Below are positions 25,314 to 30,172 of a stretch of DNA of 64,000 bases, piece by piece. How positions within the stretch are numbered: the first letter of the stretch is position 1; every line of letters begins with the position of its first letter. A program made the translations under genes and the position numbers. A model generated the notes under the pieces. The model was not told the origin of the DNA, made no database searches, and saw nothing but the letters and a program-made list of their open reading frames with translations. This DNA is from Bacillota bacterium. GTDB taxonomy: Bacteria > Bacillota_I > Bacilli_A > Erysipelotrichales > Erysipelotrichaceae. The stretch spans positions 10,870 to 74,869 of the forward strand of contig JAHFCO010000005.1 in the NCBI GenBank assembly GCA_023249475.1. Direction: 5' to 3'.

Positions 25314-25377
25314 TGCAAAGGCGCTTCCTTTGCCTTTTAAAATGAAAACTGATAGGATGTTCGCGAGGAGGCTATCC

Positions 25378-25839
25378 ATGAACATCCTTTATTTCCATTC
25401 CAATCTCTTGCGCGACACCTATCGCTGCCGGCAAGTCCGTTTTCGTCTCTGGGGGTTTATGCGCCATACCGACATCGACGCGATCTTCATCGCCGAAAGC
25501 GACAAAGCGGATGCGGGCGAACTGCAGGCGCTGAAAACACAGCTTGGCGAATTCGGCTGCCTGATCCTCGATAAAACCGGCAAGTACCGGATCGACGACG
25601 AGTTGATCGTGTTCGAGCCCCTTTCGTTGCTTGTGGACGACCAACGTTTCATCCCGCTGGACGGGTCGGTCATCCTGATAGAAACCCAGCCCGAAATCCA
25701 TGGCAACTACATCGCCCTCGATTTCTTCGCCGACGAGGATTTCGCCGATTACCACGGGGAAATCGACGCCCAAAGCCTCGTCGAGCTGAAAGATCTCATG
25801 AATGGCAGACCCAAACGCAATAAGAGCCACCTAAATTAG
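25378..25839 (+). CDS. Hypothetical acidic protein
   Basis: Within ORF 25330..25839. ATG 25378 follows GAGGAGG. I recognise no motif. Confidence 0.5.
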   Translation: MNILYFHSNLLRDTYRCRQVRFRLWGFMRHTDIDAIFIAESDKADAGELQALKTQLGEFGCLILDKTGKYRIDDELIVFEPLSLLVDDQRFIPLDGSVILIETQPEIHGNYIALDFFADEDFADYHGEIDAQSLVELKDLMNGRPKRNKSHLN

Positions 25840-25850: not shown

Positions 25851-25947
25851 TATATAATTGATTATGTTGATAAATTAATTAAAAAAATCAATAAAATACT
25901 TGACATAATTAATAAACAGGTTTACTCTATGGGTGTGAGGTGAGAAT

Positions 25948-26226
25948 ATGGCAAAGAGAATCAAGATACACATCGATACCCCGGAGAGAAAGATCCATCT
26001 CCCGTCGGTCGGAAAGACCACGGCGATCACCTTCATCCGATTCGGACTCTGGGGATCAAGCTTCGCGAAAGACATGGAACCCGAAACCAGGGAATGGATT
26101 CGCGAAAACAAGGAAGTGATCATCGACGCTGTGAAAGACGTCTTCAAGATACTGCAGGATTTTGAACCGTTCACACTGGTCGAGGTCGAAAGCGAAGATA
26201 CGCATATCCTCATCGACGTAATCTAG
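25948..26226 (+). CDS. Hypothetical 92-aa protein, paralogous to the C-terminal module of 26610..26990
   Basis: RBS GTGAGGTGAG upstream. AKRIKIHIDT...LVEVESEDTHILIDV aligns with AKRMVRILVNS...LVSVDSEDGDKVRIFVD of the third gene in the operon. Confidence 0.55.
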   Translation: MAKRIKIHIDTPERKIHLPSVGKTTAITFIRFGLWGSSFAKDMEPETREWIRENKEVIIDAVKDVFKILQDFEPFTLVEVESEDTHILIDVI

Positions 26227-26238
26227 GAGGTACGAAAC

Positions 26239-26601
26239 ATGAAAAGAGAAGTCATTGGTGTTTGCCCGGTATGTTCCTCCGATCTACTGGCGACCCGGTT
26301 GACCTGCGTCAACTGCCATACGGAAATCACAGGGGAGTTCTCGTTATCGAAGTTCAGTTACCTGAACCGCGACGAGCTCTACTTCATCGAAACCTTTATC
26401 AGGGTCCAGGGCAACATCAAAGAAATGGAAAGGGAATTGAACGTTTCCTATCCGACCGTCAAAAAGAATCTGGATGCGATCATCACGAAATTGGGGTTCG
26501 CACCGCCGAAGCCGGTCCAGGACGATGAAGCCGAGGTCTTGGCGAAGTTGAAGAACAAAGAGATCAGCGTGGAAGACGCGCTTGAACTATTAAGAAAGTA
26601 G
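26239..26601 (+). CDS. DUF2089-family protein (N-terminal zinc ribbon plus HTH-like region)
   Basis: 120 aa. CPVCSS...CVNCHTEITGEF, then ELYFIETFIRVQGNIKEMERELNVSYPTVKKNL. Confidence 0.75.
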   Translation: MKREVIGVCPVCSSDLLATRLTCVNCHTEITGEFSLSKFSYLNRDELYFIETFIRVQGNIKEMERELNVSYPTVKKNLDAIITKLGFAPPKPVQDDEAEVLAKLKNKEISVEDALELLRK

Positions 26602-26609
26602 GAGAAACA

Positions 26610-26990
26610 ATGAACTCGAAAGAACAAATCCTGGAAATGGTCAAAGACGGTACGATTACCGTCGAAGAAGGACTGAAGCTGCTCAACGCGATGGAAGCGA
26701 CCCCTGCGAAGGGATTCGCCCCCGCCCCGTCCAAACTCGCCAATGCGAAACGCATGGTACGGATCCTGGTGAATAGCGAAAAGGGCGACAACGTCCGCGT
26801 CAACATCCCCTTGGCCTTGGTCAAAGTCGGGATGGACATTGGATCCAAAATGAAGATCGATGGCAAGCAAGTGGACTTGAAGGGCATCGATTTCGACGAA
26901 ATCATCGCGATGATCGATGAAGGCGCGACCGGGGAACTGGTCAGCGTCGACTCGGAAGACGGCGACAAAGTCCGGATCTTCGTCGACTAG
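26610..26990 (+). CDS. SHOCT-like / LiaX-YvlB N-terminal-like domain protein
   Basis: 126 aa. N-terminal KEQILEMVKDGTITVEEGLKLLNAME helix pair, followed by a beta-rich module. This is the usual partner of DUF2089 genes. Confidence 0.6.
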   Translation: MNSKEQILEMVKDGTITVEEGLKLLNAMEATPAKGFAPAPSKLANAKRMVRILVNSEKGDNVRVNIPLALVKVGMDIGSKMKIDGKQVDLKGIDFDEIIAMIDEGATGELVSVDSEDGDKVRIFVD

Positions 26991-27000
26991 ATCAAACGAT

Positions 27001-27173
27001 CCAAATCACTGGATGCGAAAGCTTGGACCGCCGTGTCCAAACCAGTCGAAGATCGTCGACAAACAAACCCAGGGTGCAAATCGCTGAAAGCGAAAGCCCG
27101 CTTGAGAAAAGCGGACCAACCCGACCCAAAACGTACTTAAGATTGGATGTTGCAAATCGCTGGATGCGAAAGT
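27001..27173 (+). repeat. Three near-identical 22-nt cores spaced 75 and 76 nt apart, plus a degenerate fourth at 27280-27302
   Basis: CCAAATCACTGGATGCGAAAGC (27001), GCAAATCGCTGAAAGCGAAAGC (27076), GCAAATCGCTGGATGCGAAAGT (27152). Confidence 0.8.
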
Positions 27174-27408
27174 CCGCTCGGCCGTGAATGGACCAGACAG
27201 TACCGATCGTAAGGAATTCCCCGAAACCATGCTTTGAAGATCCAAGTGCAGACCCCTTCGTTGAGAAGTCAAACCCGGTCCAACGCGCTGTAAGCGCAAG
27301 TCTCATCGCCGTATGAAGACCAATCCGAGCCCCTCTGTAGACAACGAAGAAACAACGTAAGATCGACACTTCCCGACACCACGGGAGGCAAAGCAGAGAT
27401 CGTAAACG

Positions 27409-27434
27409 AAAAGATGCCGATTCGGCATCTTTTC
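27409..27434 (+). terminator. Rho-independent terminator closing the non-coding region
   Basis: AAAAGATGCCG-ATT-CGGCATCTTTT. Confidence 0.85.
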
Positions 27435-27497
27435 CATGTCTTTGATAGACAGTGATTTTTCGAAAAGGTATACTGATACTGTAAAGCGAGGTATCCT

Positions 27498-28301
27498 ATG
27501 TTACGTCTTGTACGCGAAGAAGAGAAAGAGAAACTACTGAACCGGCTACGGAAAGACCCCTCACGCGCCATGTTCATCATCGGCGATATCGAACAAAACG
27601 GTCTGCATACGGACTATCAGACCACGTGGGTCGAAGAAGTCGAGGGGGAATACTTGGCCGTTTATCTGAAATACCACAAGAACTTCGTGTTCTATCTTTT
27701 CAACGATGCGTTTGAACCCAAGCACTTGCTCGATTTACTGAAACAAGTCCGACCGATCAACTGTAACGCGGCGAAATCGCATTTCGTTCAAGTGCATCCG
27801 TTGATCCGGTCGTTCGTCGACGTACGCGAGATGTACTTCTGCGAATGTTCAAGTCAAGACCATGGCGTCGCCTTGACCGACGTGCGCAGGGCGGAAGTAA
27901 GCGATGCGGAAGCGATCGCCCGATCGCTCGATCGCATCGTCGAGTTCAATATGGAACCGTTGACGATCGAAGAGCGGACAGAGCGGATCCGATCCCGGTT
28001 CGCAGAAAACAAATCCAGGGGGTTTGTGGTCGAAAAGGACCAACAGGTGGTCGCTTATGCGTCCACCGCCGTCGAGACCGGCACGTCCGCGATGGTCGCA
28101 TCCGTCTTTTGTCTGCCGGAGTATCGTGGAAAGGGATATGCCAAACAAGCGGTATGGGCGCTGACCGAAGACTGCCTGAACAAGGGTCTGGTGCCCTGCC
28201 TGTTCTACGACAACCCTTCGGCCGGCAGGATTTATCATAGCTTAGGCTATGTCACCTTCGATACATGGGTTTTGGCGAAAGTGGAGGGGGAGATCGCATG
28301 A
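27498..28301 (+). CDS. GNAT-family N-acetyltransferase with an N-terminal extension
   Basis: 267 aa. C-terminal acetyl-CoA-binding-like region (CLPEYRGKGYAKQAV). Confidence 0.7.
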   Translation: MLRLVREEEKEKLLNRLRKDPSRAMFIIGDIEQNGLHTDYQTTWVEEVEGEYLAVYLKYHKNFVFYLFNDAFEPKHLLDLLKQVRPINCNAAKSHFVQVHPLIRSFVDVREMYFCECSSQDHGVALTDVRRAEVSDAEAIARSLDRIVEFNMEPLTIEERTERIRSRFAENKSRGFVVEKDQQVVAYASTAVETGTSAMVASVFCLPEYRGKGYAKQAVWALTEDCLNKGLVPCLFYDNPSAGRIYHSLGYVTFDTWVLAKVEGEIA

Positions 28302-30172
28302 AAATCGCAATGGCGCAGCTCAGTGTGAAAGCGGGGCGCGCGGATTTGAACCTGGCGCGGATGAAAGAAATGGTGGACGAGGCCAAACTTCAGTCGGCGG
28401 ACCTCATCGTTTTCCCGGAAATGTCGGTCCCGGGGTACATTCTGCAAGACCGATGGCTGCATACCTCGTTTCGAAACGAAATGGCGACGGCGAACGAGTT
28501 GATCCGCTCGTGGAGCGACGGGATCGGGATTATCTGGGGGAACGTGGTCACGGAGCAATTCGGGGTCGCGAAAACCAACCGGGATGGCCGGCCGATCCGT
28601 ACCAACGCGGCGCTTTTCGCCTGTGATCAAAAATATGTCCAACGCGACGTCCAGTTCTTGGACGGCGTCTATGTAAAACACTGCATGCCGGATTATCGTT
28701 TCTTCGACGACTCGCGGTATTTCATGAGCGGATTGGAGATCGCCCGCTTCAACAAGTGGACGGTTTCAGGATTGGTGAGTCCGTTTCATTTCAAACGCGA
28801 CGGCAAAACCTACAAGATCGGTCTGGAAATCTGCGAAGACCTTTGGAGCAAGGATTATGCGGTCGACCCGACCTCCCTGTACATCAAGCAGGGGGTGGAT
28901 TTCATCGTCAACATTTCCGCCTCGCCCTGGACGCTCAGGAAAGAACTGAGCCGTGAGAAACGGATGGCCGAGCATGTGGCCAACCATGGCGAGAAGATGG
29001 TCCCCTTGGTCTATGTGAACGCCTGCGGAATGCAGAACACGGGCAAGAACGTGCTGGTCTTCGACGGCGACAGCACATGTTACGGCAAGGACGGGAAACC
29101 GATGGTTTCCTGCAACGATGCCTTCGAAGAAGAACTTTGCATTTTCGAACTGGGCGATACCCGTCCGGTCGTAAACACCCCTTCGAAACTATTGGAAGCG
29201 TTGATCCACGGAATCCGTGAGTTCGATGCGCAAACCCTTCCGTTCCACCCGAAATGGATCATCGGACTCTCCGGCGGGGTCGATTCGTCGATCAACGCCG
29301 CGCTTCTCAGTTTGGCGATCGGATCCAAGCGGATCGTCGGCTACAATATGGCGAGCCGCTACAACGCCGACGCGACCATCTCGATCGCCCGGACGTTGGC
29401 CGAAGCGCTGGATATCGACTATCATGAAGGAAGCATCGAGGACTTGGTCGAATCGACTTCACGCACGGTCGACGGGTTCGGCTATGAAAACAAGGTCGCC
29501 GGATTGGTCCATGAAAACGTCCAAGCCCGCATCCGAGGACATCTTTTGTCGACGTTTTCCGCCATCGAAGGCGGGGTCGTCTGCAACAACGGAAACAAAG
29601 TCGAATTGGCGATCGGATATGCGACCCTCTACGGCGATGCGATCGGCGCCCTGAGTCCATTGGGCGACCTGACCAAGGTGCAGCTCTTCGAACTTGCCCG
29701 GGAAATCAACCGACGCTTCGACAAGGAAATCGTCCCGGAAAGCCTCTTGCCTCAACTGAGCGAAACGACGATCGAATGGGAAGTCCCGCCGAGCGCCGAA
29801 CTGAAAGACAAACAACTCGACCCCATGAAATGGTTCTACCATGATTGGCTGGTCCAATACTTGATCGAATACCCGACCCGCAGCGCCATCGACGTGTTGG
29901 ACCTCTATCTGACCGGGAAATGGAAAGACATGGACGTCGCACGGTGGATCCGTTATTACGGGTTGGATGACCCCGACGCGTTCATCGCCGATTTGGAATG
30001 GTTCATGAACCTTTGGACCAAGGCCGTGTTCAAGCGGATCCAATTCCCGCCGATCTTGACGGTCAGCCGCGGCGCGTTCGGCAACGATTACCGCGAAAGC
30101 CAGATCAGCACCTTCCGCTCCCCCTTGTACGAGATGAAGCGGGCGCAGATCCTCGCGAAGAAGGCAACGTAA
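28298..30172 (+). CDS. nadE: Glutamine-dependent NAD+ synthetase (CN-hydrolase domain plus NAD synthase domain)
   Basis: Within ORF 28265..30172. MKIAMAQL...FPEMSVPGY, ICEDLW, and the PP-loop SGGVDSS. The ATG overlaps the GNAT stop (ATGA). Confidence 0.9.
   Translation: MKIAMAQLSVKAGRADLNLARMKEMVDEAKLQSADLIVFPEMSVPGYILQDRWLHTSFRNEMATANELIRSWSDGIGIIWGNVVTEQFGVAKTNRDGRPIRTNAALFACDQKYVQRDVQFLDGVYVKHCMPDYRFFDDSRYFMSGLEIARFNKWTVSGLVSPFHFKRDGKTYKIGLEICEDLWSKDYAVDPTSLYIKQGVDFIVNISASPWTLRKELSREKRMAEHVANHGEKMVPLVYVNACGMQNTGKNVLVFDGDSTCYGKDGKPMVSCNDAFEEELCIFELGDTRPVVNTPSKLLEALIHGIREFDAQTLPFHPKWIIGLSGGVDSSINAALLSLAIGSKRIVGYNMASRYNADATISIARTLAEALDIDYHEGSIEDLVESTSRTVDGFGYENKVAGLVHENVQARIRGHLLSTFSAIEGGVVCNNGNKVELAIGYATLYGDAIGALSPLGDLTKVQLFELAREINRRFDKEIVPESLLPQLSETTIEWEVPPSAELKDKQLDPMKWFYHDWLVQYLIEYPTRSAIDVLDLYLTGKWKDMDVARWIRYYGLDDPDAFIADLEWFMNLWTKAVFKRIQFPPILTVSRGAFGNDYRESQISTFRSPLYEMKRAQILAKKAT

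Follow-up and report, generated by a model that had tools for sequence, protein, structure and literature searches.

Repeated three-way junctions downstream of a DUF2089 operon: a predicted structured RNA in a genus of Erysipelotrichaceae

Introduction

The window analyzed in this study is a 64,000-nt stretch of contig JAHFCO010000005.1 (Erysipelotrichaceae, assembly GCA_023249475.1). It contains a three-gene operon on the plus strand (25948-26990), delimited by an ORF scan and with a synteny kept in all relatives, which encodes a 92-aa protein, a DUF2089 Zn-ribbon/HTH protein (26239-26601) and a SHOCT-like protein (26610-26990). DUF2089 proteins combine a Zn-ribbon, an HTH and a SHOCT-like part, and their operons are predicted to be membrane-stress signaling modules of the lia/PSP type (PMC11237479). 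A PDB sequence search with two operon proteins returned nothing useful. The stop codon of the operon is followed by about 440 nt (26991-27434) with repeated hairpin-forming units, which raises the question whether this region is the remnant of a gene, a passive tail of the operon mRNA or an RNA with a role of its own. A preliminary description, made from the letters of the window, had favored a functional RNA.

Limits and repeats of the region

No ORF of at least 60 aa is present on the plus strand between 26990 and 27498, and the sole plus-strand terminator-like site of the region lies at 27408-27434, where a perfect 13-nt inverted repeat is followed by a U-rich tail. Both the ORF scan and the terminator search thus agree with the preliminary description, which had reported an ORF-free region until 27498 with a single strong terminator. 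Neither a promoter nor another terminator was found between the stop codon at 26990 and this site, the arrangement by which 3'UTR-derived sRNAs are recognized. The terminator (AAGAUGCC/GGCAUCUU) is conserved behind all arrays of the relatives and, given its inverted repeat and this conservation, is taken as the intrinsic terminator that forms the 3' end of the RNA.

A repeat search revealed a 28-nt core in four copies at 27000, 27075, 27151 and 27279 (spacing 75, 76 and 128 nt), with 68-89% identity between the copies. The repeated cores noticed earlier are therefore genuine, with four copies at positions one base off the earlier numbers. In the whole 2.09-Mb genome, the 22-mer core occurs with up to four mismatches only at its three sites. 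When folded, a 456-nt stretch covering the region beats 100 out of 100 shuffled sequences (z = -2.8). The region 26991-27434 is 95 and 92% identical in the closest relatives G007 and G002, respectively. Based on the lack of an ORF, the single terminator and the CM matches described below, we annotate it as one structured RNA on the plus strand, namely a four-module array in the 3'UTR of the DUF2089 operon.

Architecture of the modules

Each unit is a three-way junction (P1-P2-P3) and not merely a pair of hairpins. From 5' to 3', a module consists of P1, J1/2, P2, two or three junction nucleotides, P3, the trinucleotide ACC and the 3' strand of P1. The closing stem P1 is variable in sequence, and J1/2 has the consensus yAAAU. 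P2 is short (3-4 bp, mostly UCGC/GCGA) and conserved in sequence. Its loop L2 is a pentaloop UGNAW in type-A modules (UGCAA in all units of the relatives G004 and G006, UGAAA or UGUAA in others) and an invariant hexaloop AGUGAG in the type-B modules of some relatives. P3 has 6-8 bp and a hexaloop L3, which is mostly GGCCGU or CGCCGU (SGCCGU). The modules are 51-68 nt long, diverged and irregularly spaced. The preliminary description had seen units of two hairpins; both hairpins exist, and CGCCGU/GGCCGU loops are present on the second one as described, but the second stems are longer than given (6-8 bp) and the additional stem P1 had been missed.

All four modules of the window lie on the plus strand. 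Module U1 (26996-27056; 53.8 bits against the CM) is closed by P1 at 26996-27001/27051-27056 and contains P2 at 27007-27009/27015-27017 (loop UGGAU) and P3 at 27021-27028/27035-27042 (loop CGCCGU, 27029-27034). Its P2 has an A-C mismatch in the window that does not occur in the G007 and G002 orthologues, and in G002 a C-G pair of its P1 is replaced by U-G with pairing kept. Module U2 (27072-27122) has P1 at 27072-27075/27119-27122, P2 at 27081-27084/27090-27093 (loop UGAAA) and P3 at 27096-27103/27109-27116 (loop GAGAA). Its P3, CCCGC/GCGG in the window, reads UUUGC/GCAAA in G002, a difference of two double compensations. Module U3 (27141-27208) is the best CM match in the window (59.4 bits), with P1 at 27141-27146/27203-27208, P2 at 27157-27160/27166-27169 (loop UGGAU) and P3 at 27172-27179/27186-27193 (loop GGCCGU, 27180-27185). 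Module U4 (27274-27329) has P1 at 27274-27278/27325-27329, P2 at 27285-27288/27294-27297 (loop UGUAA) and P3 at 27300-27306/27313-27320 (loop CGCCGU, 27307-27312), and extends to 27256-27349 when its 8-bp outer helix CUUCGUUG/CAACGAAG (27256-27263/27342-27349) is included. Analogous helices are found in relatives, where the last module is enclosed by GAAG/CUUC or GUCG/CGAC (recovered by RNAalifold). Folded in isolation, U2, U3 and U4 each have the three-way junction as their MFE structure (z = -3.35 for U2). Between the last module and the terminator there is a small plus-strand hairpin CUUCCCG/CGGGAGG (27369-27388, z = -4.1), the stem of which reads CUUCCG/CGGAAG in G002, so that pairing survives four changes.

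The 64-nt linker between U3 and U4 (27209-27273) is nearly unchanged in three species. Its elements GUAAGGAA...UUCC and UUGAAGA recur in the 5' leader of the second array of contig L074 (2310-2350; see below), and the linker could be the relic of two fused arrays.

Covariation and selection

We evaluated the pairing of P2 and P3 in two alignments. The first, built with MAFFT from sequence alone, comprised 17 units from seven genomes and was not fitted to the model. In this alignment, 81.8% of the cells pair compared to 62.7% after shuffling, with none of 500 shuffles reaching the observed value, and 39 cells show a double change compared to 13.7 in the shuffles. When the partner is slid by one to three columns, pairing falls to 28-36%. 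The second alignment contained 37 units (33 distinct) from about 15 genomes and contigs, representing about 15 independent loci. They were aligned to the CM, and this model-fitted alignment, hence biased toward the model, has compensatory changes in eight out of eight P3 pairs among the 33 distinct units, with up to six pair types per position. For P1, cognate flanks pair at -10.1 kcal/mol and non-cognate flanks at -7.9 kcal/mol (p = 1e-4), and in type-B units one inner P1 pair is formed in nine out of nine sequences by five different pair types. Aligning the corresponding regions of relatives was the check that the preliminary description had proposed. Its proposal of conserved loops with compensatory stems, as expected of a functional RNA rather than a decayed ORF, is borne out by the covariation in the 33 units, including the compensation of all eight P3 pairs.

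Sequence conservation was compared with the fourfold degenerate sites of neighboring genes. Among the closest relatives, the whole RNA (92-95% identity) is about as conserved as the fourfold sites in both upstream genes (91-96%) and more so than those of the GNAT gene (76-79%). The closest relatives alone are therefore not decisive, and it is the deeper comparisons that decide. Positions 27140-27340 carry only three changes among three species whose fourfold sites differ by 4-24%. Taken together, we are highly confident that the region encodes a real structured RNA on the plus strand.

Strand and coding potential

The assignment to the plus strand follows from four features, namely the G-U pairs, the terminator, the CM matches and the dedicated promoter in relatives. 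Among the 33 distinct units, 25 of the 380 pair cells are G-U, which the opposite strand would read as A-C, and the CM matches the plus strand only.

Frames without stops, 115-147 codons long on the minus strand and 65 codons long on the plus strand, could suggest a coding origin, whether as a decayed repeat-protein gene, as a gene for a small peptide or as a minus-strand gene. The plus strand is poor in T, and stops on the minus strand are rare for that reason. These frames shift by 1-nt indels between genomes that are 92-95% identical, leaving no conserved reading frame, their translations are unrelated in G004 and G001, and a Pfam search with the frames of the region gave no match. In addition, the spacing of 75, 76 and 128 nt is not a multiple of three, and the substitutions preserve base pairs rather than codons. 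We consider the chance of a coding origin negligible, and the pseudogene that the preliminary description had kept as its alternative is rejected because the frames are not conserved among relatives.

Distribution and gene neighborhood

CM searches covered about 700 genomes, 301 from the family and 401 from the order, with E-values that are rough because the CM calibration was shortened. Strong matches (29-61 bits) are present in seven out of eight species of the genus of the window, and all of them are flanked by the SHOCT-like gene and the GNAT gene. Outside the genus, these 301 and 401 genomes gave only matches of 21-24 bits, which is chance level; one of them falls within an RNase R ORF. 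Metagenome contigs that encode a SHOCT-like protein of at least 74% identity all carry two to four modules, and the array sizes found are 2, 3, 4 and 2+2 modules. A sister lineage with 65-69% identity (including G005) has the gene order ftsZ, 153-aa gene, 92-aa gene, DUF2089, SHOCT-like, GNAT, nadE, with a gap of only 85 nt made up of the terminator and the GNAT promoter. More distant DUF2089 operons contain no RNA array. Since the array-less sister lineage keeps the gene order, the array was inserted between the stop codon and the operon terminator in one subclade. The DUF2089 module itself does not need the RNA, as the latter occurs in only one subclade of a single genus. A BLASTN search of the RNA against plasmid and phage collections gave no match.

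The operon promoter and second arrays in relatives

The promoter of the DUF2089 operon was located at 25857-25928 (plus strand; -35 TTGACA at 25900, -10 TACTCT at 25923). It contains an inverted repeat ATTGATTATG/CATAATTAAT overlapping the -35 element, the second half-site of which has the form CATAAT(C/T)AAT. The repeat pair ATTGATTATG/CATAATCAAT occurs nowhere else in the genome of the window, which suggests an autoregulatory circuit of a single operon.

Four related contigs have a different organization. Two arrays occupy the gap in L072, L074, L078 and L102, and both consist of one type-A and one type-B module with a terminator behind them. In front of the second array there is an AT-rich segment that nearly duplicates the operon promoter, with the repeat ATTGATTATG/CATAATCAAT included. 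Sequence comparison places this duplicated segment at 2230-2320 in both L074 and L072, at 2170-2280 in L078 and at 2060-2165 in L102. Both promoter copies have in common ATTGATTATG..., ATTAAAAA.GTTAATAAAATAC, TTGACA(T/A)AATCAATA and TTTA(C/T)TCT. Judging from these elements, the duplicated segment presumably represents an active promoter. As the second array is equipped with a promoter copy and a terminator of its own, the RNA appears to be a separate, co-regulated product, and this cassette of promoter, array and terminator without an ORF favors a trans-acting RNA over a pure cis-element of the 3'UTR. The RNA is thus probably trans-acting and co-regulated with the operon. The preliminary description had left the choice between a structured 3'UTR and a binding sRNA or sponge, and both fit, since the array is an operon 3'UTR here and has a promoter-driven copy in relatives.

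We infer that the shared promoter ties the expression of the RNA to the regulator of the operon, for which the operon's own Zn-ribbon/HTH protein is the obvious candidate. From the duplication one would predict that operon and RNA are under the control of a single regulator, which binds ATTGATTATG/CATAATCAAT. Transcription, processing and abundance of the RNA are likewise inferred.

L3 loops and a possible kissing contact

Positions 1-4 of the L3 loops of neighboring modules are often complementary. In most arrays they read GGCC/GGCC, with four out of four pairs. The L3 pair of L079 (UGUC/GACA) forms four Watson-Crick pairs, and those of L073 (GAUA/UGUC) and of L081 and L102 (GGUC/GGCC) form four out of four with one G-U each. 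Many arrays have CGCC/GGCC with only three out of four pairs, and the L3 loops of G003 show no pairing match. The two fully different loop pairs look compensatory, which suggests that adjacent modules dock by a 4-bp L3-L3 kissing loop, a contact we favor slightly on the basis of these complementarities. Because GGCC is palindromic, an intermolecular association is also possible. Inspection by eye revealed no L2-L3 covariation within a single module. In some units the loops deviate (GAGAA, UACGAU, GAAAGU), and the surface on offer is therefore not identical in all modules.

Known RNA families and candidate partners

An Rfam 15 cmscan (E <= 10) found nothing within 26991-27434 on the plus strand. 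The single match, to ClpQY_promoter, is on the minus strand and has 18 bits against a gathering score of 42, and the arrays of six relatives gave no Rfam match either. The earlier description had not recognized any known family, and the cmscan it had suggested leads to the same result. The structured RNA is previously undescribed.

Among candidate protein partners, CsrA (PF02599) and Hfq (PF17209) are absent from the genome, which is 96% complete. The E. coli, B. subtilis and T. maritima controls were positive for CsrA, and the Hfq controls were positive in five genomes. The search for ANTAR (PF03861) gave no match, but the control genomes were equally silent, so its absence is not proven. Target hexaloops of ANTAR regulators have an A at position 1 and a G at position 4. 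A dual hairpin of this type was considered and rejected because only the type-B loop L2 (AGUGAG) fits, while L3 (SGCCGU) and the type-A pentaloop do not. The sRNA EutX/Rli55 uses such a dual-hairpin site to sequester EutV, an ANTAR regulator. It resembles the RNA described here in having two adjacent hairpins with conserved loops, with AGUGAG fitting the A1/G4 rule, and in its possible function as a decoy, but SGCCGU breaks this rule and the hairpins of our modules are arms of a closed junction.

The GGAUG motifs that had been pointed out at 27011, 27145 and 27162 are all present; the one at 27145, however, is located in P1 of U3 and not in a linker. The motif is not conserved (UGCAA in all units of G004 and G006), and the genome lacks csrA. 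A sponge for CsrA/RsmA analogous to CsrB/RsmZ might be inferred from the three GGAUG motifs, two of which occur in hairpin loops. Like CsrB/RsmZ, the RNA is noncoding, consists of a variable number of repeated stem-loop units with one loop motif and ends in a terminator. Its units are three-way junctions instead of single hairpins, though, and with GGA unconserved and CsrA lacking in a 96%-complete genome, we practically dismiss this explanation.

Three further candidates of other kinds were rejected. In a type III toxin-antitoxin system (ToxI-like), the repeats would be near-identical and of fixed length, whereas the units found here are diverged and irregularly spaced; in the place of a toxin, the downstream gene encodes a 267-aa GNAT, overlaps nadE, has its own promoter and is present in genomes without the array. 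A CRISPR array is at odds with repeats of 68-89% identity and irregular spacing, and with neighbors that are ftsZ, the DUF2089 operon, GNAT and nadE. A cis-acting riboswitch leader does not match an RNA that follows a stop codon, with a promoter-like site between its terminator and the GNAT gene.

Possible function of the RNA

As a whole, the locus is best read as the source of a multivalent RNA that acts in trans as an output of the DUF2089 stress module, a reading to which we assign a probability of roughly 45%. The RNA would be made whenever the DUF2089 module is induced and would act in trans as a folded, multivalent platform. Its repeated modules would offer equivalent surfaces of conserved sequence, namely the P2 hairpin and the loop SGCCGU, by which the platform may bind a partner or titrate it away, with a protein as the most likely partner, and the number of modules (2, 3, 4 or 2+2) would set its capacity. 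A binding or titrating RNA of this kind fits best because of the equivalent conserved surfaces, the variable module number and the co-induction with a putative stress module. The sponge or scaffold mechanism as such is a tentative proposal, held with somewhat less than even confidence. A bolder version, which we regard as distinctly unlikely, makes the RNA the effector arm of the DUF2089/SHOCT membrane-stress module, with modules that would pair via L3 into a higher-order fold or an RNA-only oligomer; the only promoter targets of the module that are detectable by sequence could be its own operon and the RNA. ROOL, GOLLD and OLE, large ornate RNAs that assemble with themselves by kissing loops, are comparable as multi-domain structured RNAs, and the palindromic GGCC loops could mediate RNA-RNA association. 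The present RNA differs from them in its size of only 200-440 nt, its restriction to one genus and its lack of sequence similarity or an Rfam match, and its oligomerization is hypothetical.

CpxQ is a 3'UTR-derived stress sRNA from the cpxP mRNA, and an RNA acting in the same way by base pairing, with the SGCCGU loops or single strands (AAAUCAAGAAUCUUC in relatives) as redundant seeds for stress-response mRNAs, would share its location in the 3'UTR of an envelope-stress-type operon, a terminator common to mRNA and sRNA and the expected co-induction with the proteins. The existence of stand-alone copies and of conserved unpaired stretches adjoining the terminator in relatives agrees with such a function. 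Yet the conserved 3' single strand of the G001 type is not retained in the clade of the window, the genome has no Hfq gene, and the elaborate covarying junctions exceed what the presentation of a seed needs, the RNA being much larger and more structured than CpxQ and having a promoter-driven copy in relatives. No sign of a seed emerged either, as in about 2,000 crude translation-initiation regions the complements of L3 are not enriched (ACGGCC 15 compared to 27 expected, ACGGCG 33 compared to 79), and we find base pairing unlikely. Tandem aptamers are known, and the modules recall purine-class aptamers and the glycine and guanidine-II tandem aptamers by their size (55-70 nt), P1-P2-P3 junction, possible loop-loop contacts and tandem layout. 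With conserved junction nucleotides and a terminator directly after the array, a ligand or ion might control termination at 27408-27434 and read-through into GNAT-nadE, or an activity in trans. However, the GNAT gene has its own promoter beyond the terminator, which is kept in array-less lineages, and in L072 and L074 the first array and its terminator are followed by a new promoter and the second array, not by a gene. No conserved alternative pairing with the terminator was found, the number of modules and their loop sequences vary, and the RNA differs from riboswitch aptamers in being located outside a 5' leader, having no Rfam match and showing no expression platform. The proposed kiss, moreover, joins L3 loops of different modules and not L2 and L3 within one. 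We judge the aptamer explanation very unlikely.

A purely cis-acting 3'UTR element, with stable structures that would shield the operon mRNA against 3' exonucleases or serve as an insulator toward the GNAT promoter, accounts for the position directly past the stop codon and ahead of the operon terminator. It does not account for the promoter-driven array without an ORF in four relatives; simple protection requires no loops or junctions conserved in sequence, and sister lineages cope with the terminator alone. Such an element appears even more doubtful than tandem aptamers.

The RNA is the first RNA component tied to the widespread and uncharacterized DUF2089/SHOCT-like modules, and it represents a well-supported RNA family without an Rfam 15 match from a poorly studied, mostly uncultured lineage. 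If L3-L3 kissing and multivalency hold true, it would provide a compact model of modular RNA scaffolds or sponges in bacteria lacking Hfq and CsrA, and if the RNA were indeed the effector arm of the stress module, it would be a new self-assembling or protein-scaffolding class tied to envelope stress in Bacillota. Its general importance is limited by the narrow distribution.

Additional observations on neighboring sequences

The unit model also produces weak matches (13-18 bits) inside the coding sequence of the SHOCT-like protein, at about 26669-26720 in the window and, in the same way, at 1100-1144 in L039, 1660-1717 in L081 and 1660-1710 in L072. In this ORF, TCAACGCGATGGAAGCG resembles the J1/2-P2 part of U4 (CCAACGCGCTGTAAGCG). 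This likeness could be due to chance, or the first module could have originated by duplication of part of this gene.

Between ftsZ and the DUF2089 operon, at 25330-25839, there is an acidic ORF of 153-169 aa, without a match in Pfam and with a position kept in all relatives fetched. Downstream of the array, the 267-aa GNAT gene (27498-28301) has its own promoter past the terminator, also in lineages without the array. This GNAT-nadE promoter (TAGACA-17-TATACT, with a leader ...TATAAAG(C/T)GAGG; window 27435-27497, L083 1990-2060) is found genus-wide, even in array-less lineages, and several relatives have GCTTTATA upstream of the GNAT -35 element, complementary to TATAAAGC beside the Shine-Dalgarno sequence. 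The GNAT gene and the NAD synthase gene (28265-30172) overlap by 37 nt (28265-28301), which suggests a translational coupling of the acetyltransferase with nadE.
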